Position numbers and translations under genes: made by a program
Part shown: piece after piece, positions 2,465 to 56,944 of the stretch
Numbering within the stretch: the first letter of the stretch is position 1
How the letters are laid out: every line of letters begins with the position of its first letter
The notes under the pieces: model-generated
Told to the model about the DNA's origin: nothing
What the model saw: only the letters and a program-made list of their open reading frames with translations
Databases searched by the model: none
Assembly: GCA_035627595.1 (NCBI GenBank)
Contig: DASPLK010000005.1
Coordinates: 69,513-133,512, forward strand
Source: Minisyncoccota bacterium
GTDB taxonomy: Bacteria > Patescibacteriota > Minisyncoccia > Phycocordibacterales > Phycocordibacteraceae
Length of the DNA: 64,000 nucleotides
Direction: 5' to 3'

Positions 2465-2785
2465 TTATACGACCTCAATTGGGTATACGTCCGTCGCAGG
2501 CTCTTCGTATGGGTGGACCTCCTTAATAGCCTTAAGCACCGCTTGCAGCGTATCTCCGGTACATACCGTTTCGATGCGGTCCTCGTGCACCTCTTCAAGC
2601 TTCCCAATAGAGCCGATAGTTGGATTTGCGCCCGCTTCAGGCTTGAACCGGCCAATTCCTTTTATTGTAAAAGTGCAGTGCGAGTAATTCCCTATCTTCC
2701 CAGCACCAGCATTGCCTATAGCCTCGCGCAGCTTATCAGCATGGTCTTCGGGAACGTATACCACTAGCTTGTAGCGTTTCTCCAT
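2465..2785 (-). CDS. small PII/CutA-like fold protein (Nif3-insert-domain-like)
   Basis: 106 aa; C-terminal VHPYEEP motif resembles the CutA1 HPYEVPE signature; about 100 aa single domain. Confidence 0.35.
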   Translation of the reverse strand: MEKRYKLVVYVPEDHADKLREAIGNAGAGKIGNYSHCTFTIKGIGRFKPEAGANPTIGSIGKLEEVHEDRIETVCTGDTLQAVLKAIKEVHPYEEPATDVYPIEVV

Positions 2786-2855
2786 TACTCCATTGTATCG
2801 CTATCGCAGGTTTTGCTAAGCGACGCGTCTCATGTGGGATAATTTCGCACGAATT

Positions 2856-2883
2856 AGCTGACCGTCTGGGACGTTATTTGAAC
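2856..2883. repeat. direct repeat copy 1 (agctgaccgtctgggacgttatttgaac)
   Basis: 26/28 identical to 3314-3341; overlaps the stop codon of the nucleotidyltransferase gene. Confidence 0.7.
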
Positions 2884-3287
2884 TTTTTTGAACAATACTC
2901 ATCAATAAGTTGCAGATCTCGAAGATCCTTCTCGCGTTTTAGCTGTAGCTTTGCATCCTTAAGCTGATCAAGACTCATGAAAGGAATCCCTTCTTGGAGG
3001 TAAGCTCCAGGTAGCATTTCTTCAAGGGTAGGATTCTCCTTCATAAAGTCTAGGCTTTGCTTTGCACCTGCTGAGTGATCAGGAGTATCGAGCGTAGTCG
3101 AATACTTTTCATTCCGAATCCACCCGTATTCGCTTTCAAGTCTTGAGAAAAGATCAGGCGATACGAGGAGATCAATATCGCCGGCCTGACGGATTCCGAA
3201 TAGTTCCAGGATCGCACTTCCGCACACCATGTAATGCCCCTCCGGCAAGCCAAGGGCACGGACACGCTCGATATAGGTACTAGCCAT
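2874..3287 (-). CDS. Pol-beta-superfamily minimal nucleotidyltransferase
   Basis: 137 aa; G-S-x11-D-I-D motif (GSAILELFGIRQAGDIDLLV) of minimal NTases; gene bracketed by 28-bp direct repeats. Confidence 0.45.
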   Translation of the reverse strand: MASTYIERVRALGLPEGHYMVCGSAILELFGIRQAGDIDLLVSPDLFSRLESEYGWIRNEKYSTTLDTPDHSAGAKQSLDFMKENPTLEEMLPGAYLQEGIPFMSLDQLKDAKLQLKREKDLRDLQLIDEYCSKKFK

Positions 3288-3313
3288 AAAAAAATTATGG
3301 CACGAGAATGACG

Positions 3314-3341
3314 AGCTGACCGTCTGGGACGATATTCGAAC
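3314..3341. repeat. direct repeat copy 2 (agctgaccgtctgggacgatattcgaac)
   Basis: Same orientation as copy 1; 27 nt upstream of the nucleotidyltransferase start; a weaker third partial copy lies at 3386-3402. Confidence 0.7.
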
Positions 3342-3377
3342 CTCAATATGTAGATAATGCTACCTTTGACGCTTTAC

Positions 3378-4178
3378 CTATACGTGAGCTGACGTCCTGC
3401 TCTTAAACGCTTTTGGTTCCTTGAAGCCATCTAATTGGTCAGGGTGATTAGCTAAGAGATAGCGCCTTATGACTTTTGCCATATATCGATTCTTTAAACG
3501 AAAAGCCCTGACTTCCGCTGGAACGTCACTGAAGGGCTGAGTGGTTTTCGATTTATGACAATCGGGGTCCTTAAAGGTGCCCGAATGTTTGGGACAGAGC
3601 GTCAGATAGTCATGTTGATGCTGATGTATATGATGCGCCTCTCCTGATTTTATGTGCCCCAATATCCTATGGTAATCATCCGACAGTTCACTCAAGACCT
3701 CATCGTCCATTCTCCAAAGGAACACGTATTTGATTAAGTACTCTGATCTCGGAATACTTGGGTCATCTACATACCATACGAACAGCACGTACTTGTTCTT
3801 CTTATACAAAGAAGATTCGCGTATGTCCGCATTCTTGTACTCCGAATTGTAATTAATGATGTTTAGAGATAGCGGCTCCTTTACGCTAAGCTGGCCATTC
3901 TTAAGTAGCTTCAAAGGGCTTGTCTTAAGCTCAACATCCAAGTGCTCTATGTCAGCTGCAGCTGTGTTGTTCTTCCCTATGCCAAAATATCCCTCTTCAA
4001 TCACATAACCGACAAAGGCTTTCGTGCTGACACGAGTAGCCTCATCACTGTCAACTATAGAGGGCATTATCTCCCTCAAGGTCTTACCCTCAAGATCTCG
4101 ACGAGCAATCTCCTCGAGTTCCTGGACGGTCTTTATGCTGCTCAGGTCAATGCGGGCTATATACAGAAAGTGTAACAC
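3378..4178 (-). CDS. MutH/Sau3AI-family (PD-(D/E)xK) endonuclease, putative restriction endonuclease
   Basis: 266 aa, GTG start; LDVELKTSP motif matches the MutH catalytic DxExK region (MutH: LGVELKTIP); preceding G-rich segment GYFGIGKN resembles the MutH N-terminal motif; divergent from the m5C methyltransferase gene. Confidence 0.6.
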   Translation of the reverse strand: MLHFLYIARIDLSSIKTVQELEEIARRDLEGKTLREIMPSIVDSDEATRVSTKAFVGYVIEEGYFGIGKNNTAAADIEHLDVELKTSPLKLLKNGQLSVKEPLSLNIINYNSEYKNADIRESSLYKKNKYVLFVWYVDDPSIPRSEYLIKYVFLWRMDDEVLSELSDDYHRILGHIKSGEAHHIHQHQHDYLTLCPKHSGTFKDPDCHKSKTTQPFSDVPAEVRAFRLKNRYMAKVIRRYLLANHPDQLDGFKEPKAFKSRTSAHV

Positions 4179-4258
4179 CCTGAATATCGCCGCAAGATTA
4201 TTACCGTGTAAATGGCCGACTTGATCAAGTTTTATCCAGCTGATAGAATGGGCAAATC

Positions 4259-5530
4259 ATGAAATCAGGCGGCGATAAGATAAGAGTGGTCGAGCTATTC
4301 GCTGGAGTTGGCGGGTTCAGATTAGGGCTCGAAGGATCAAAGGGTAACCGTAAACCGCATCATTCCCACTTTGAGACCGTATGGTTCAACCAATGGGAAC
4401 CCTCCACCAAACGACAGCACGCACATGAGACCTACGCTAGGAATTTTGGTCATATCGATGAATACACCAATGAGGACATCGCGAAAGTGACTGGTCAGGT
4501 TCCTGACCACGATCTCCTAGTAGGTGGCTTTCCTTGCCAGGACTATTCAGTGGCCAGGAACCTCTCTTCTTCTGCAGGCCTTGAAGGAAAGAAAGGTGTG
4601 CTTTGGTGGTCAATCCACGAGATCTTGAATATAAAGGGTTCCAAGGCACCTAACTATTTGATGCTTGAGAATGTAGACCGTCTACTTGTCTCCCCTGCTA
4701 GTCGTCGAGGCAAGGATTTTGCGATTATCCTTTCTTCGCTTATTAAGCTCGGCTATGTGATCGAGTGGCGTGTTATCAATGCTGCTGAGTACGGATTTCC
4801 ACAAAGAAGGAAGCGGACATTCATACTGGGATACAAAAAAGGTTCACCTATAGAAAAGAGGTTCCGAAAACTTAACGACCCTGAGAAGTGGCTCATAAAG
4901 GATGGCGTCGTACAGCAATCATTCCCTGCTGTCTTAGACGGAGATATCCGAACATTCACGATAGACTCTGATCCCGTCATTGTTTCTAAGGAGTTCAACC
5001 TTGAGAAGCCCCAGACCTCCCCATTCGCTAATACTGGTGTCATGGTCGATGGAAGGGTCTATACCGCCCGAGTAACTCCGAACTATAAGGGAAAATACGC
5101 AACTCTTGGTGATGTACTTCTTCCAGAATCCGAGGTTCCGAAGGAATACTACATTGATAAGGAAGATCTTCCCCGCTGGGTATACCTAAAGGGAGCGAAG
5201 AATGAACCTAGGAAGGGTTCTGATGGGTTCGAGTTCACATACAAAGAGGGCGCGATGTCATTCCCGGATTCCCCAACAAAGGCCTCGAGGACTATCATCA
5301 CCGCTGAAGGCGGTAAGACACCTTCCCGTTTCAAGCACGTCGTTAAGACAAAGAAGGGTTATCGACGTCTAACCCCTATCGAATTGGAACGGCTTTGCAT
5401 GTTCCCTGACAATCACACACAGGGCCACCCTGATGCGAGGCGTGCTTTCTTTATGGGCAATGCTCTTGTCGTTGGTGTAATAGATGGACTAGGCAAAGCC
5501 CTAGTAAAGCTCCACACATCTAAGATTTAA
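4259..5530 (+). CDS. dcm: DNA (cytosine-5)-methyltransferase
   Basis: 423 aa; motif I ELFAGVGGF; motif IV GGFPCQDYS; motif VI ENV; motif VIII QRRKRTFILGY; C-terminal GNALVVGVI. Confidence 0.9.
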   Translation: MKSGGDKIRVVELFAGVGGFRLGLEGSKGNRKPHHSHFETVWFNQWEPSTKRQHAHETYARNFGHIDEYTNEDIAKVTGQVPDHDLLVGGFPCQDYSVARNLSSSAGLEGKKGVLWWSIHEILNIKGSKAPNYLMLENVDRLLVSPASRRGKDFAIILSSLIKLGYVIEWRVINAAEYGFPQRRKRTFILGYKKGSPIEKRFRKLNDPEKWLIKDGVVQQSFPAVLDGDIRTFTIDSDPVIVSKEFNLEKPQTSPFANTGVMVDGRVYTARVTPNYKGKYATLGDVLLPESEVPKEYYIDKEDLPRWVYLKGAKNEPRKGSDGFEFTYKEGAMSFPDSPTKASRTIITAEGGKTPSRFKHVVKTKKGYRRLTPIELERLCMFPDNHTQGHPDARRAFFMGNALVVGVIDGLGKALVKLHTSKI

Positions 5531-5975
5531 TTGCGGACCGCACACGCTTCGCAGCCAAAGAAGGATTCTTCTTGATCTCGCATTCCCATACGACAACGAC
5601 CTTCCATCCATCCTTTCTTAGTCCCGACTCTTTTCGTGAGTCACGCTCTTTATTCCTCTTGAACTTCTCCTTCCAGAATCCCTGATTCGATTTTGGTATA
5701 GGTAGCTTACAGTGAGTGCATCTATGCCAGTAACATCCATGCACGAATACAGCTACCTTCTTACCTTTGAATACCAAATCAGGCCTCCCGTGTTCTGTCT
5801 TGAGATGTAGCCGATAACCCCTGGCCCCTAGACTAAAGAGTGCTTTCCGCAACGCTATCTCAGGCTTTGTATTCGAACCTTTATTCGCACTCATAACATT
5901 AGAGGTCTTCCCTTCTTTCGGAATTGGAGATCTTCCGTCGCGAATATAGGCTCTTCTCGATTCGAGTCTATTCAT
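5520..5975 (-). CDS. vsr: very-short-patch-repair (Vsr) endonuclease
   Basis: RPDLVF...KKVAVFVHGCYWHRC...VVVVWECE matches the Vsr core; a start at the internal Met (5894) is likely; 3' end overlaps dcm convergently. Confidence 0.85.
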   Translation of the reverse strand: MNRLESRRAYIRDGRSPIPKEGKTSNVMSANKGSNTKPEIALRKALFSLGARGYRLHLKTEHGRPDLVFKGKKVAVFVHGCYWHRCTHCKLPIPKSNQGFWKEKFKRNKERDSRKESGLRKDGWKVVVVWECEIKKNPSLAAKRVRSAIKS

Positions 5976-6066
5976 GCATACAGGATAAGCTTGTACGTGT
6001 ATCCTGCCCAGAGTAACTTATAGCAACCCAATTTGCTCTCATTTTCACGTAGGACGTATTAATACA

Positions 6067-6097
6067 GAAGAGCCCCGATTGTGGATCGGGGCTCTTC
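6067..6097 (-). terminator. stem-loop terminator downstream of the GHKL ATPase gene
   Basis: gaagagccccgat tgtg gatcggggctcttc, 13-bp perfect stem. Confidence 0.55.
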
Positions 6098-6111
6098 AAA
6101 TGATGAGTAAT

Positions 6112-7665
6112 TTAGTCCAGAAGGACCTTGAGATTCTTGGACATGGTTTCCAGCACCGCATCAAGAAGTGCGGTAGTCTCCGCCGTGCTGTACTTCAGCT
6201 TCGCTTCCCCAAGAGCGTAGGCTAGGAAGGACACTGCGTTCACGAGCTCCTGCTCGTCACGCTGAGCAAACACAACCTTCTGGAAGAAGGGATGTTCATT
6301 ATTCCAGGTGATGACTGTCATGCCACCTTCTTTCTCTGCTGTGAATATATGTCCATGTGCGCCAAGGGCAGCATTCTCGAAGCGAGCTGTGCCACTAAGA
6401 GTGCCAGCACCACGCTGATGCGCACCGACTTGGTAAGCAGACACCTCCACTACCCCCCTTGGGGACCTGCGTTTTGATGAAGGCGGGTTCGCGGCCTCAA
6501 TAGACGGTGCTCGGTCCAGCAACTTCGTCTTCTGGGCAATTGACCCTTCTGCTTCAGAGAAGTCGAGCTCGGTAGACGCCACAGGAGTCTTCCTTCGAGA
6601 GGAGTACTTTGCGCGCAGCCGGTCAACTTCTGGCATTACTTCCTTGGCAATCTTGTCGAGGAATGCTTGGGACGGGTTCACATTGTGCTTTGTGTAGTTG
6701 ATTCCCATTACCGCATCAAGCCGACCTGACACGAGAATTTCAGCACGCACACGGTTCAGGCTGTTATGGCGCACCCACAACCCGTTAAGGTCGTCCGCTG
6801 AGGCGACCTGACGATAATTGCGCAGCACATAGAAACCTTGCGTATCCTGTCCAACAGTCTTCTTCTTTCCCTTTGCTGGAAGTTCGTCAGGCAAACGAAA
6901 GACCTTCACTGTGAACTGCTCAGAAACTCCGGATCCAAGCTTGATTTCGAATGTCTTATTGAACTCCAGGTCCGAGGAATAACCTGATTCCTCGACATAA
7001 CGACCATCGAGCCACATAGGGTCAATGATTGATGCTTCCTTGCCGTTTACGACAATCTTCTTCCCAGCACGAATGAAGTAGCGGTAGATTTCGCCGAGAT
7101 GGTGGCGCAAACCATTCTCAAATTCCTCAATCTCGACACGTTCAAGCTGGTCGCAGTTCTTAAGAACAACAACGGTCCCGTGCGCCCCCAGTCCGTAACC
7201 TTGTGCGATTTTCTCCTGCTCGGATGTAGCCACACCGCGATGAATATCGAAAGAATTCGATTCTTCCATCACATCCAAATCCATAATTCCGACAAGAACT
7301 GGTGACCCTTCCGTCCGGGTGTAGACCTCAACACGCTTTGCAATTGAGATTGAGCCAGTCACAAGACCCATGCCAAAACGACCGAGATCTGAGTCCACAT
7401 TGCGTTCGGTGAGTGATCCGAGACGAAGGGCCTGTTCCAAGACCTTCTCATCCATTCCCGCACCGTTATCGCACACGACTATGGTCGCCTTCCCCGCCTT
7501 CTGATCCCCAGAAATCAGCACTTCGACGACCGATGCGTCTGCATCGAGTGAATTATCGACGATGTCGGAGATTGCGACCTTATTCTCGTAACCACTGTAC
7601 CGAAGAGAAGCCATTAGCTTCCCTGCGTTTGGCGTATTCGCCTGATTGAACTTTTCGTTCTGCAT
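6112..7665 (-). CDS. MutL/MORC-like GHKL (Bergerat-fold) ATPase
   Basis: Motif I IVDNSLDA; motif II VVCDNGAGMD; motif III GRFGMGLVTGSIS as in the MutL N-terminus. Likely start is Met at 7665 (MQNEKFN) with GAGG 13 nt upstream; the ORF track extends to 7827 through the repeats. Confidence 0.7.
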   Translation of the reverse strand: MQNEKFNQANTPNAGKLMASLRYSGYENKVAISDIVDNSLDADASVVEVLISGDQKAGKATIVVCDNGAGMDEKVLEQALRLGSLTERNVDSDLGRFGMGLVTGSISIAKRVEVYTRTEGSPVLVGIMDLDVMEESNSFDIHRGVATSEQEKIAQGYGLGAHGTVVVLKNCDQLERVEIEEFENGLRHHLGEIYRYFIRAGKKIVVNGKEASIIDPMWLDGRYVEESGYSSDLEFNKTFEIKLGSGVSEQFTVKVFRLPDELPAKGKKKTVGQDTQGFYVLRNYRQVASADDLNGLWVRHNSLNRVRAEILVSGRLDAVMGINYTKHNVNPSQAFLDKIAKEVMPEVDRLRAKYSSRRKTPVASTELDFSEAEGSIAQKTKLLDRAPSIEAANPPSSKRRSPRGVVEVSAYQVGAHQRGAGTLSGTARFENAALGAHGHIFTAEKEGGMTVITWNNEHPFFQKVVFAQRDEQELVNAVSFLAYALGEAKLKYSTAETTALLDAVLETMSKNLKVLLD

Positions 7666-7670
7666 ATTTG

Positions 7671-7706
7671 TTTTATGCCTCGACGACGCGTGAGCGCCAC
7701 AAAGAC
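7671..7706. repeat. 36-bp direct repeat A (ttttatgcctcgacgacgcgtgagcgccacaaagac)
   Basis: 34/36 identical to 7790-7825; sits in the 5' leader/RBS region of the GHKL ATPase gene. Confidence 0.75.
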
Positions 7707-7789
7707 GGTTATGAGCACATTTGTAAAGCACAAAGGCCGAGCCGCAGAAGCGACCGGCAAAGAAGTTAAGTAGAGATATCCATAGGTAA

Positions 7790-7825
7790 TTTTGTGCCTC
7801 GACGACGCGCGAGCGCCACAAAGAC
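7790..7825. repeat. 36-bp direct repeat B (ttttgtgcctcgacgacgcgcgagcgccacaaagac)
   Basis: Direct copy of repeat A, 119 bp away; only two copies, so not a CRISPR array. Confidence 0.75.
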
Positions 7826-7860
7826 AATTACTGATAACAGCCGTAGTATACCGCGCATGA

Positions 7861-8292
7861 ACAACCTCGTCAAAACAGGTAACGCGTCCAGGACGCTCGA
7901 GACTAAGTATCCCTTCCCTTCCGGAGATTGAGTCCCGTCTCACTGACGGCTTCTCTTCCGGCCTAATTCGCAAAGAACTCTGCCAAGAGAAGATGAGAGA
8001 AGTCGCTAACAAACGCGCAGAACTAGAGCAGCAGATTGAAGATACTGAATCAAAGAACGGAGTATCATCTGTGACTTTCGAACAGATACAAAACGTGTTT
8101 ATAGAAGGCAGTAGAGCCGCAGAAAAGTATTTGCTCGCCGATGATACGGAAAAGCGAGAGATGCTCCAAAAACTACTTTCGAACGCTACTATCGAAAACG
8201 GAAAAGTGGCGCAGATACAATACAAAAGTCCGTATCAACTACTTGCACTGACCCCTAAAAACGCTGACTTTTCGACTTTGCTGCGGGACTAG
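7861..8292 (+). pseudogene. gene remnant abutting the tRNA-Gln 3' end (possible recombinase/integrase C-terminal fragment)
   Basis: Frame is open from 7861 with no start; first ATG at 7993 gives a 99-aa charged coiled-coil-like tail ending inside the tRNA 3' end; no catalytic motifs visible. Confidence 0.25.
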
Positions 8293-8351
8293 GACTCGAA
8301 CCTAGATAAACGCCTCCAGAGAGCGCTGTCCTACCATTAGACGATCCCGCA
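8281..8351 (-). tRNA. tRNA-Gln (anticodon CUG)
   Basis: Cloverleaf with U1:A72 and G73 (Gln identity elements); D-arm CGUCUAAUGGUAGGAC; anticodon loop CUCUGGA; T-arm CUAGGUUCGAGUCCUAG; about 71 nt. Confidence 0.6.
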
Positions 8352-8454
8352 ATCAGCAAAGCGGCAGGAGCCGCTCTGCTAGCTAGAAGATACACGAAAA
8401 TAGGCTCGGAGAAAAGCCTGCGGCTCATGCTATAGTTTCGGGACAACTGAATAC

Positions 8455-8551
8455 GTATCAAGAGCGCGGCGAGGCATCTGGGCCTTTGAACCGCCAGCAA
8501 CCATTCCAAACGGAACCGGTGCTTCCAGCCCCAACCCATGGGGAGCGATGC
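8455..8551 (+). promoter_or_regulatory. SAM-I (S-box) riboswitch aptamer upstream of metK
   Basis: GUAUCAAGAGCGCGGCGAGG...UGGGCCUUUGAACCGCCAGCAACC...GGUGCUUCCAGCC...GAUGC matches the SAM-I core (UAUCAAGAG, GGAGG, GGCCC, GAA.CC.GCAACC, GGUGC..UCC, P1-closing GAUG). Confidence 0.55.
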
Positions 8552-8565
8552 AGTAATGTCTCACG

Positions 8566-52424: not shown

Positions 52425-52501
52425 CCATCCTTAGCTCAGTTGGTTAGAGCACGGAGCTTATACCTCCGCGGTCCCTGGTTCGAGTCCAGGAGGATGGACC
52501 A
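52425..52501 (+). tRNA. tRNA-Ile (anticodon UAU), CCA encoded
   Basis: CCAUCCUUAGCUCAGUUGGUUAGAGCA; anticodon stem CGGAG/CUCCG with loop CUUAUAC; T-arm CCUGGUUCGAGUCCAGG; acceptor CCAUCCU/AGGAUGG; ACCA. Confidence 0.7.
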
Positions 52502-56531: not shown

Positions 56532-56944
56532 AGGGGGTGACCGGTTTTGACGGTCTTGATCTTTGAGAGACGTGCGACGTAGTGGAAGCATGCTGACCAC
56601 TTTAATCCCGCAGGCAAAAACAAACGCAAACAACACTGTTGCACGCGGAGTACTCTCACCTATCCAGATGAGCGATCTTACTCCGTTCGCTTTCGCGCGC
56701 GCCTAACGGCCCCCGCATAGCGGCGTTGTATTCGTCCCGGTTCCCATAGCGGACGAATACGGCGGAATCTTCTATGGGACCAGCAAGGAGAGTGCCTCGG
56801 CTCTTGGCTCGGTATTAGAGACTCAGGAGGGAGCGGTTTCGTCCGCGTTCCTACGCCCCTCCTTACAATGAACGTGGGCTACGCGTCGTAGATTCGTCCT
56901 TAAAGAGAGATTCGGACGGGGGTTCGATTCCCCCCACCTCCACA
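56532..56944 (+). ncRNA. ssrA: tmRNA (transfer-messenger RNA)
   Basis: 5' GGGGGUGACCGGUUUUGACGG like the E. coli GGGGCUGA...UUCGACGG; 3' GGACGGGGGUUCGAUUCCCCCCACCUCCAC tRNA-like T-arm/acceptor; internal ORF ending ...PFAFARA-UAA; directly downstream of smpB. Confidence 0.8.

Follow-up and report, generated by a model that had tools for sequence, protein, structure and literature searches.

A composite restriction-modification islet beside tRNA-Gln in a CPR bacterium, with a facultatively linked GHKL ATPase predicted to be MORC-like

In Escherichia coli, MutL stimulates both MutH and Vsr. Here we describe an island of ~5.5 kb (about 2790-8279) in a candidate phyla radiation (CPR) bacterium, in which homologues of these two nucleases lie with a C5 cytosine methyltransferase and a GHKL ATPase beside tRNA-Gln. 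It is part of a stretch of 64,000 nucleotides from a Minisyncoccota bacterium (contig DASPLK010000005.1, positions 69,513 to 133,512), which we call the window and to which all coordinates refer unless a related locus (L001 and so on) is named. A reading made from the sequence alone had placed four genes here, and open reading frames (ORFs) and profile matches agree with those positions; all four genes are intact in the ORF list and the profile searches:

3378-4178, minus strand: MutH/Sau3AI-family restriction endonuclease, single-domain, 266 amino acids, with Pfam, NCBIfam, PADLOC and PDB matches
4259-5530, plus strand: C5 cytosine methyltransferase (dcm) of the M.Sau3AI-like subfamily, 423 amino acids, from profile matches and motifs
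5520-5975, minus strand: Vsr very-short-patch (T:G) mismatch endonuclease, 151 amino acids, convergent with dcm with an 11-bp overlap
6112-7665, minus strand: GHKL ATPase of paraMORC type, 517 amino acids, in which a Bergerat ATPase domain is followed by an S5-like middle domain, then by a disordered linker (residues 390-424) and, at the C-terminus, by a dimerisation-like beta3-alpha3 domain

GHKL ATPases beside Dcm, Vsr and nucleases of the restriction endonuclease (RE) fold have been known since 2008, when MORC and paraMORC GHKL ATPases in restriction-modification (R-M) operons were described by Iyer, Abhiman and Aravind (PMC2292703). The island resembles such paraMORC operons (e.g. those of Pseudomonas putida and of Agrobacterium plasmids) in its GHKL and S5 domains with a family-specific C-terminal extension, in having a cytosine methylase, Vsr and an RE-fold nuclease as neighbours, and in a sporadic, mobile distribution in which stand-alone copies exist. 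With the Sau3AI system (R.Sau3AI/M.Sau3AI, and isoschizomers such as LlaKR2I) it shares a MutH/Sau3AI nuclease with D...E-x-K and a divergent C5 methylase, whereas the island nuclease is without the allosteric second-site domain through which Sau3AI activates itself, and its GATC target and 5-methylcytosine (m5C) mark are predicted ones. The E. coli MutL/MutH/Vsr set is matched by a GHKL ATPase beside homologues of both nucleases, and by ATP-gated N-termini with C-terminal dimerisation, which would form an analogous clamp; unlike that set, the island ATPase is not MutL, there is no MutS, the nuclease is an R-M enzyme, and the mark would be m5C rather than the N6-methyladenine of Dam. Three things appear to be new: an ATPase family whose C-terminal domain is Hsp90-like, the position of its gene as an anchor at tRNA-Gln behind a structured leader, and its selective, facultative association with GATC-type systems, above all where the nuclease is of the MutH family. 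We propose, with a probability of roughly 0.5, that the island is a composite islet made of a Sau3AI-type R-M core, Vsr and a facultative accessory ATPase.

The nuclease corresponds, by profile coverage, to the catalytic N-terminal half of Sau3AI without its effector C-domain, since its match to the NCBIfam Sau3AI equivalog (NF040973; 177 bits, E 6.4e-52, below the cut-off of 300) covers only profile positions 8-234 of 475; for contrast, the full-length enzyme of L165 reaches 424 bits over positions 1-474. It also matches the full Pfam MutH domain (PF02976, 1-103; 80.1 bits against a cut-off of 23, E 1.3e-22), PADLOC REase_II (5e-41) and PDB 4pxg (Sau3AI; E 3e-24, with D...E-L-K aligned). Its stretch AADIEHLDVELKT can be aligned both to QDFAALGVELKT of MutH and to the active-site stretch of Sau3AI, and D70, E77 and K79 are invariant across 26 homologues; the single-domain MutH/Sau3AI-family nuclease with a DxExK motif proposed from the sequence is thus borne out, its catalytic triad being aligned. 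A mismatch-repair MutH was considered and rejected (NF003458, 55.8 bits versus 243; TIGR02248, 43.5 versus 229.9; no MutS or MutL among the window's large ORFs). The large ORFs elsewhere in the 64-kb window encode LigA, RecG, FtsH, a PilB-like ATPase and others, and the earlier statement that mutS and mutL are absent holds among them. Homologues of the nuclease of ~250 amino acids are abundant in CPR bacteria, and RefSeq already labels the short form 'MutH/Sau3AI family endonuclease'.

The methylase, also as proposed, matches Pfam DNA_methylase (PF00145; 199 bits, cut-off 22, E 1.4e-58), TIGR00675 (218 bits, cut-off 100.65) and PADLOC MTase_II (1e-152), and its translation holds the motifs LFAGVGG (I), GFPCQDYS (IV), LENV (VI), PQRRKR (VIII) and GNALV (X). 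Plasmid relatives that are 44% identical to it adjoin annotated Sau3AI-family or short MutH/Sau3AI-family enzymes, including a 283-residue form, and the divergent arrangement seen here also occurs in annotated Priestia plasmid systems. Judged by family, the nuclease would be specific for GATC and the methylase would yield GAT(m5C). Between the two genes lies the following region:

4179-4258, no strand: divergent promoter region of nuclease and methylase, 80 bp, with one promoter-like site each way (4221-4249, plus; 4212-4183, minus), which are consensus matches only

The -35-like hexamer TTGATC (4221-4226) before dcm, likewise a consensus match only, contains a GATC (4223), which might possibly serve as a methylation-sensitive switch. 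Vsr, as the sequence-only reading had it, is convergent with dcm and overlaps its 3' end; its gene follows the ATPase gene at a distance of 136 bp and in the same direction, the protein matches TIGR00632 (126 bits, cut-off 97.85) and Pfam Vsr (1.1e-22), and its translation holds RPDLVF...FVHGCYWHRCTHC, the catalytic and zinc motif. By analogy with E. coli Vsr it would nick at T:G mismatches. An R-M pair with Vsr is in itself routine.

The ATPase gene starts at the ATG at 7665, as in its homologues, and the longer ORF to 7827 is spurious. The protein matches HATPase_c_3 (79.9 bits, cut-off 25), and N38, D66-x-G68, G95/G98/G100 and G163-T164, as well as K326 of the middle domain, are invariant among 29 homologues of ~510 amino acids. 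In its AlphaFold2 model (mean predicted local distance difference test 81.5) the best Foldseek matches are the GHKL and S5 modules of human and mouse MORC2, MORC3 and MORC4 (E about 2e-16, template-modelling score about 0.5), on which the predicted structure superposes over about 400-460 columns, with Hsp90 ranking behind; MORC also ranks before MutL in a sequence search of the PDB. The likeness to eukaryotic MORC2/3/4, the best matches in predicted structure and in PDB sequence alike, has its limits: identity is 13-16%, the island protein is without the CW zinc finger and the coiled-coil insertion, and its C-terminal domain resembles the dimerisation C-domain of Hsp90 (HtpG) and not MutL_C. 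No nuclease fold is found in the predicted structure, and the C-terminal domain holds no nuclease motif beyond a conserved N..HPF. The model therefore places the ATPase nearer to MORC than to MutL, and suggests a clamp of the MORC/MutL/Hsp90 type, dimeric and gated by ATP.

Among the named families that were tried, MutL fails (models TIGR00585 and PRK00095; best score 30.1 bits with TIGR00585, versus 180, over residues 33-80 only, without a MutL C-terminal domain), so that of the 'MutL/MORC-like GHKL ATPase' first proposed the GHKL and MORC-like parts stand and the MutL part does not. MzaB of the MZA anti-phage system is the best-scoring named defence model (PADLOC 3e-24, NCBIfam 1e-27), but the protein reaches only 96.6 bits against the NCBIfam cut-off of 850, and PADLOC finds no other Mza gene among the island proteins. 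The BbrUII/HgiDII enzyme family (NF050001) is likewise rejected, at 49.5 bits versus 550 over residues 30-215, the ATPase domain only. Full-length plasmid relatives (~25% identical; Pseudomonas, Agrobacterium) lie in operons of dcm, vsr, GHKL, HNH, DEAD helicase and EcoRII_N genes, and this company suggests an affinity to paraMORC1. At E <= 1e-30 the family accounts for 2,519 of 1.84 billion 50%-identity cluster representatives; we found no name for it in annotations and no experimental data on it.

To ask how far the four genes belong together, two samples of related loci were compared: 80 metagenome loci seeded on the nuclease, with a strict set in which the pair is flanked by at least 2 kb on each side, and 80 genome loci seeded on the ATPase, with 55 full-length orthologues, both taken among the matches listed and partly non-independent (L002 equals L003, and L007 equals L175). 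The co-conservation implied by the sequence-only reading holds for nuclease and methylase, which occur together in 21/21 of the strict set, and fails for the other two genes, with Vsr in 6/21 and the ATPase in 1/21 (3/39 when at least 2 kb of flank on one side suffices). Seen from the ATPase, both methylase and nuclease are near in 2/55 orthologue loci (L007, L012), and the complete four-gene set was found in one further locus, L100. The obligate unit is the two-gene R-M pair, to which Vsr is frequently added and the ATPase occasionally. Vsr lies directly downstream of the ATPase in the window and in L100, and directly upstream of it in the distant plasmid relatives.

The association is nevertheless recurrent. 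Sau3AI-type systems stand beside the ATPase at no fewer than four separate tree positions (the window clade, L007/L175, L012, L100 and L141), in at least five gene orders (arrowheads give direction):

Window and L001: ATPase> (Vsr>) <dcm nuclease>
L007: <nuclease dcm> ATPase>
L100: <dcm nuclease> ATPase> Vsr>, with gaps of 216 and 50 bp
L012: ATPase> HTH> <dcm <full-length Sau3AI
L165: ATPase> <dcm <full-length Sau3AI
L093: ATPase> <recombinase <dcm nuclease>

Identities to the window are incongruent in L007 (methylase 73%, nuclease 70%, ATPase 47%) and stand at 60%, 69% and 67%, respectively, in L093; L164, which holds the closest ATPase relative (86% identical), pairs a BglII-family nuclease with a methylase that is M.Sau3AI-like and shares 55% identity with that of the window, and the cassette of L166 combines a Dam-family double methylase with an AlwI-family nuclease. 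Short nucleases accompany the ATPase in the window, L001, L093, L007/L175, L100 and L141, and full-length Sau3AI does so in L012 and L165. Altogether 11 restriction systems were found beside it, 10 with an M.Sau3AI-like methylase and one with a Dam-type methylase and AlwI. Sau3AI cuts at GATC, BglII and BstYI at (R/A)GATC(Y/T) and AlwI at GGATC, and Dam methylates GATC. From this family knowledge, every restriction system found beside the ATPase would target a GATC-containing site. As a rough estimate, the 3/39 rate in nuclease-seeded loci is orders of magnitude above random-neighbour expectation, because the ATPase family is so rare. The linkage of ATPase and Sau3AI-type systems is non-random, yet facultative: it recurs at several places in the tree, in several gene orders, and all partners are GATC-related by family.

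Upstream of the ATPase gene we find, in order:

7666-7873, minus strand: promoter-like site and structured 5' leader of the ATPase gene, with promoter-like TTGACG-17-TATACT at 7873-7845
7906-8292, plus strand: remnant of a large serine recombinase, C-terminal ~130 amino acids, its 3' end overlapping the tRNA-Gln 3' end
8280-8351, minus strand: tRNA-Gln(CTG), the right-hand border of the island and a conserved neighbour of the ATPase gene

The leader spans ~180 nt. Two families of direct repeats occur in the island, with none expected by chance, and the sequence-only reading had taken direct repeats as a sign of acquisition. The repeats are real, but the pair at 7671-7711 and 7790-7830 consists of 13-bp, G.U-rich and hence strand-specific hairpins of the ATPase leader, near-identical and ~119 nt apart with a third hairpin between, the proximal one containing GAGG 12 nt before the ATG. 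In seven sequences 94% of cells are paired, against 33-52% in controls with slid partners, and compensatory changes occur at 10 pairs, a level reached in 0/500 shuffles, in a covariation test that is biased by deriving the structure from the same alignment. The leader is kept upstream of R-M-linked and solitary ATPase genes alike (L164:180-398, L166:4890-5117, L093:1225-1452, L005:7790-8016, L174:5790-6016) and matches nothing in Rfam; it may represent a cis-regulatory RNA not described before, or else a site for protein binding. A role of the 7671/7790 repeats as attachment (att) or recombination sites was rejected, these being covarying hairpins conserved in related loci that include solitary ATPase genes. 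With conserved covarying hairpins, a promoter-like site and GAGG near the ATG, the ATPase has a regulatory leader of its own.

In five loci (the window, L001, L093, L164 and L166) the gene directly upstream of the ATPase gene is a tRNA-Gln (anticodon CTG or TTG), a homologous leader of about 250 bp lying between the two, and the cassette behind the ATPase varies. The ATPase is thus the anchor gene at tRNA-Gln, behind which GATC-type cassettes are exchanged. The gene remnant noticed in the sequence matches residues 361-489 of the 514-residue recombinase of L089 (35% identity, tblastn E 1e-19) and, in the alignment with related loci, forms an insertion of ~350 bp between tRNA and leader; intact serine recombinases flank the module or its cassettes in L001, L007/L175, L093 and L166. 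At L089:985-2529 (minus strand) the recombinase ORF runs into the 3' end of a tRNA on the opposite strand and ends in ...GDSNSRY..., the translated complement of the T-arm, and the stop codon of the window's remnant lies inside tRNA-Gln (8280-8292); this suggests that such recombinases integrate into tRNA 3' ends. No convincing second partial tRNA-Gln 3' end was found at the inner edge of the remnant. The gene pyrG, near the module in three of these genomes, is 70% identical between the window and L166 and 60% between the window and L001, where the ATPase gives 53% and 74%, and from this incongruence the ATPase unit is mobile and not vertically inherited. The island as a whole is a composite, horizontally acquired defence islet: it has a low G+C content, it adjoins the 3' end of tRNA-Gln, it carries a serine recombinase remnant, and intact recombinases stand beside the module in related loci. 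The horizontal acquisition and the tRNA-Gln border proposed earlier are both upheld.

In the composite islet that we favour, the C5 methyltransferase would guard host sites, presumably turning GATC into GAT(m5C), and the divergently transcribed single-domain nuclease would cut unmodified incoming DNA at GATC. Vsr, a common optional add-on, would nick beside the T:G mismatches that arise by deamination of the 5-methylcytosines made by the methylase. The ATPase dimer, joined through its Hsp90-like C-terminal domain, would act as an ATP-gated DNA clamp or looping factor and modulate restriction, Vsr nicking or both on GATC-methylated genomes, in a manner comparable to the stimulation of MutH and Vsr by MutL and to the activation logic treated in a 2026 MutL-MutH preprint (bioRxiv 10.64898/2026.04.21.719898); the R-M pair would remain independent of the ATPase, and the ATPase of a linked R-M pair. 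A facultative accessory clamp is, by this analogy, the most likely role of the ATPase. Several observations weigh against the proposal. Short-nuclease R-M pairs lack the ATPase in >90% of cases, and ~50/55 ATPase orthologues lack methylase or nuclease nearby, so that any cooperation between the two must be dispensable both ways. The partner nucleases are of unrelated folds and architectures (short and long Sau3AI, BglII-fold, AlwI), which argues against a specific protein interface. GATC is not depleted in the window, where its observed/expected ratio of 0.92 is ordinary among palindromic tetramers. No island-free site was found in the relatives, and comparison did not define the borders. Finally, the G+C of the ATPase gene is unlike that of the R-M segment and the gene has its own promoter-like site and leader, which fits an independent unit equally well.

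The main rival, which we regard as a possible if less probable account, builds on that last point: the ATPase would be an independent, separately regulated single-gene module, either a stand-alone defence or a MORC-like DNA-organising clamp, that shares the tRNA-Gln hot-spot with cassettes borne by serine recombinases, and the R-M pair and Vsr would work without it. It accounts for the solitary orthologues, which sit among ribosomal, tRNA-synthetase and metabolic genes, for a promoter-like site and a structured leader that also precedes solitary copies, for a G+C of 0.50-0.54 in the ATPase gene against 0.44-0.50 in the R-M segment, for the swapping of the cassette behind the ATPase between close relatives, for recombinase genes or remnants at the cassette borders, and for other CPR loci that place the ATPase beside PIN/TIR-like or ParB-like genes. 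It leaves unexplained why all 11 neighbouring systems are GATC-related and why distant members of the ATPase superfamily lie inside dcm-vsr operons (PMC2292703). Sau3AI-type linkage moreover recurs without tRNA-Gln (L007, L100) and in the distant L012 and L141 (no tRNA scan there), in other gene orders, and the nuclease>ATPase>Vsr order of L100 is tight, with its gaps of 216 and 50 bp.

A stronger form of functional linkage seems rather unlikely to us. Under it the ATPase would be the restriction-side analogue of MutL, repeatedly recruited by GATC R-M systems, chiefly those of the MutH family, to license or coordinate nicking by the MutH-like nuclease and by Vsr; it would be a living model of the state ancestral to MutL-MutH signalling in methyl-directed mismatch repair, with expression gated by a double-hairpin leader RNA not described before. 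Where the ATPase is linked to anything, it is nearly always to a restriction system of GATC type, in many cases with a MutH homologue as nuclease, and a restriction-system origin of MutL-type signalling was already a speculation of Iyer et al. in 2008 (PMC2292703). A specific partnership of the MutL-MutH type is weakened, since the partners include the BglII-fold enzyme beside the 86% identical ATPase, AlwI with a Dam-type methylase, and full-length Sau3AI.

We consider it improbable that the system is an obligate ATP-regulated Sau3AI-type enzyme, in which a latent nuclease is switched on in trans by the ATPase in place of the allosteric C-domain of Sau3AI. The nuclease does lack that effector domain, MutL activates MutH in trans and the C-terminal domain activates Sau3AI in cis (bioRxiv 10.64898/2026.04.21.719898), and the ATPase is linked to short nucleases at the six places named above. 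Yet 20/21 fully flanked short-nuclease pairs have no ATPase nearby, so the short nuclease must act either by itself or with another partner; full-length Sau3AI (L012, L165), BglII-fold and AlwI nucleases are found beside the ATPase as well; and the ATPase is MORC-like and fails the MutL models. The ATP-regulated Sau3AI-type R-M system with T:G repair that the sequence-only reading offered is therefore plausible in outline, not as an obligate machine, the ATPase being facultative.

Very improbable, in our view, is that the ATPase is itself a restriction enzyme, either of the GHKL kind known from R.HgiDII/BbrUII or a type IV enzyme that depends on modification; the island would then be a system of two nucleases. 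A weak NCBIfam match to BbrUII/HgiDII (2.4e-13), a PADLOC REase_II match, the precedent of GHKL-containing restriction enzymes (PMC2441816) and a solitary occurrence that would fit type IV all speak for it, but the matches are limited to the ATPase domain (residues 30-215; 49.5 bits versus 550), the predicted structure shows no nuclease fold, and the Hsp90-like C-terminal domain has N..HPF as its only conserved motif of that kind. Least credible of all is the portable mini mismatch-repair module that had also been suggested, in which the ATPase would coordinate the MutH-like and Vsr nucleases with m5C as strand mark and without a part in defence: homologues of both nuclease partners of E. coli MutL do adjoin a methylase, and some paraMORCs in non-RM contexts were possibly recruited to repair (Iyer et al. 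2008, PMC2292703), but neither the island nor the window's large ORFs hold a MutS-like sensor, the nuclease scores higher as Sau3AI (177 bits) than as MutH (56 bits) and is the R gene of a classical divergent R-M pair found together in 21/21 loci, 20 of them without the ATPase, and the module, foreign in its G+C, moves together with serine recombinases.

Should the linkage be functional, the islet would offer a minimal, tractable system of two or three proteins in which to study what prokaryotic MORC-like ATPases contribute to restriction, and to ask if the signalling from MutL to MutH and to Vsr has a parallel, or its origin, among restriction systems. Should it be positional only, the islet is a well-resolved case of cassettes being exchanged at a tRNA-Gln hot-spot of CPR bacteria.

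Other neighbours of the ATPase were also observed. In 7/55 orthologue loci the next downstream gene encodes a protein of 400-700 amino acids with sigma-70 region 4 and RpoA-CTD-like HhH modules (L012:8987-10225, L015:2065-3576, L029:2872-4068, L039:9546-11300, L055/L056:9417-10829, L058:9441-11567), the only recurrent neighbour in the 55 loci apart from Sau3AI-type systems. L002, like the identical L003, has methylase and ATPase without a MutH-family nuclease; the position of the R gene (L002:5256-6428, minus strand) holds a protein of 390 amino acids, whose unassigned N-terminal 260 residues are fused to a LexA-like S24 peptidase domain. At L174:7673-10054 the ATPase is followed by a PIN_12 protein and then by a faint CAP12/TIR-like match, amid pilin genes of a type IV secretion system, which is another defence-like context for the family.

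At the left edge of the island, near which (~2750) the fall in G+C begins, three further features lie between the flank and the nuclease gene:

2856-2883, no strand: direct repeat D3, copy 1, 28 nt, overlapping the stop codon of the 137-residue ORF, at the approximate left edge of the low-G+C island
2874-3287, minus strand: ORF of 137 amino acids with a GS...GDIDLL motif, nucleotidyltransferase-like in looks, bracketed by the D3 repeats
3314-3341, no strand: second copy of direct repeat D3 (93% identity to copy 1), in the gap that separates the nuclease stop codon from the 137-residue ORF

The D3 repeat has two copies where shuffles lead one to expect 0. Searches of Pfam, NCBIfam, PADLOC and PDB gave no match for the ORF, its single match is phrog_12854 (function unknown, E 8e-6), and it is present in none of the related loci compared; with its repeats it has the look of a one-gene cassette that was inserted downstream of the nuclease. 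In the window scan, G+C is 0.44-0.50 over 2750-6000, intermediate in the ATPase gene and 0.47-0.48 over 7750-8500, against 0.53-0.58 in the flanks. The genes around homologues of the flanking flavoprotein (82% identical) are unrelated to those seen here, and the flank is not conserved in relatives. As to phage carriage, the phage collection gave three weak partial matches only, and an Rfam scan of the island returned the tRNA alone.

Elsewhere in the window, an S-adenosylmethionine (SAM, S-box) riboswitch lies upstream of metK (8452-8555, plus strand), above the Rfam gathering score; the listed start of metK (TTG at 8486) falls inside the SAM aptamer, and the true start must therefore be further downstream. 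A tRNA-Ile with anticodon TAT, which is uncommon in bacteria, is found at 52425-52501 (plus strand), and a transfer-messenger RNA at 56533-56943 (plus strand) has a long predicted tag peptide of 26 residues, ANNTVARGVLSPIQMSDLTPFAFARA.

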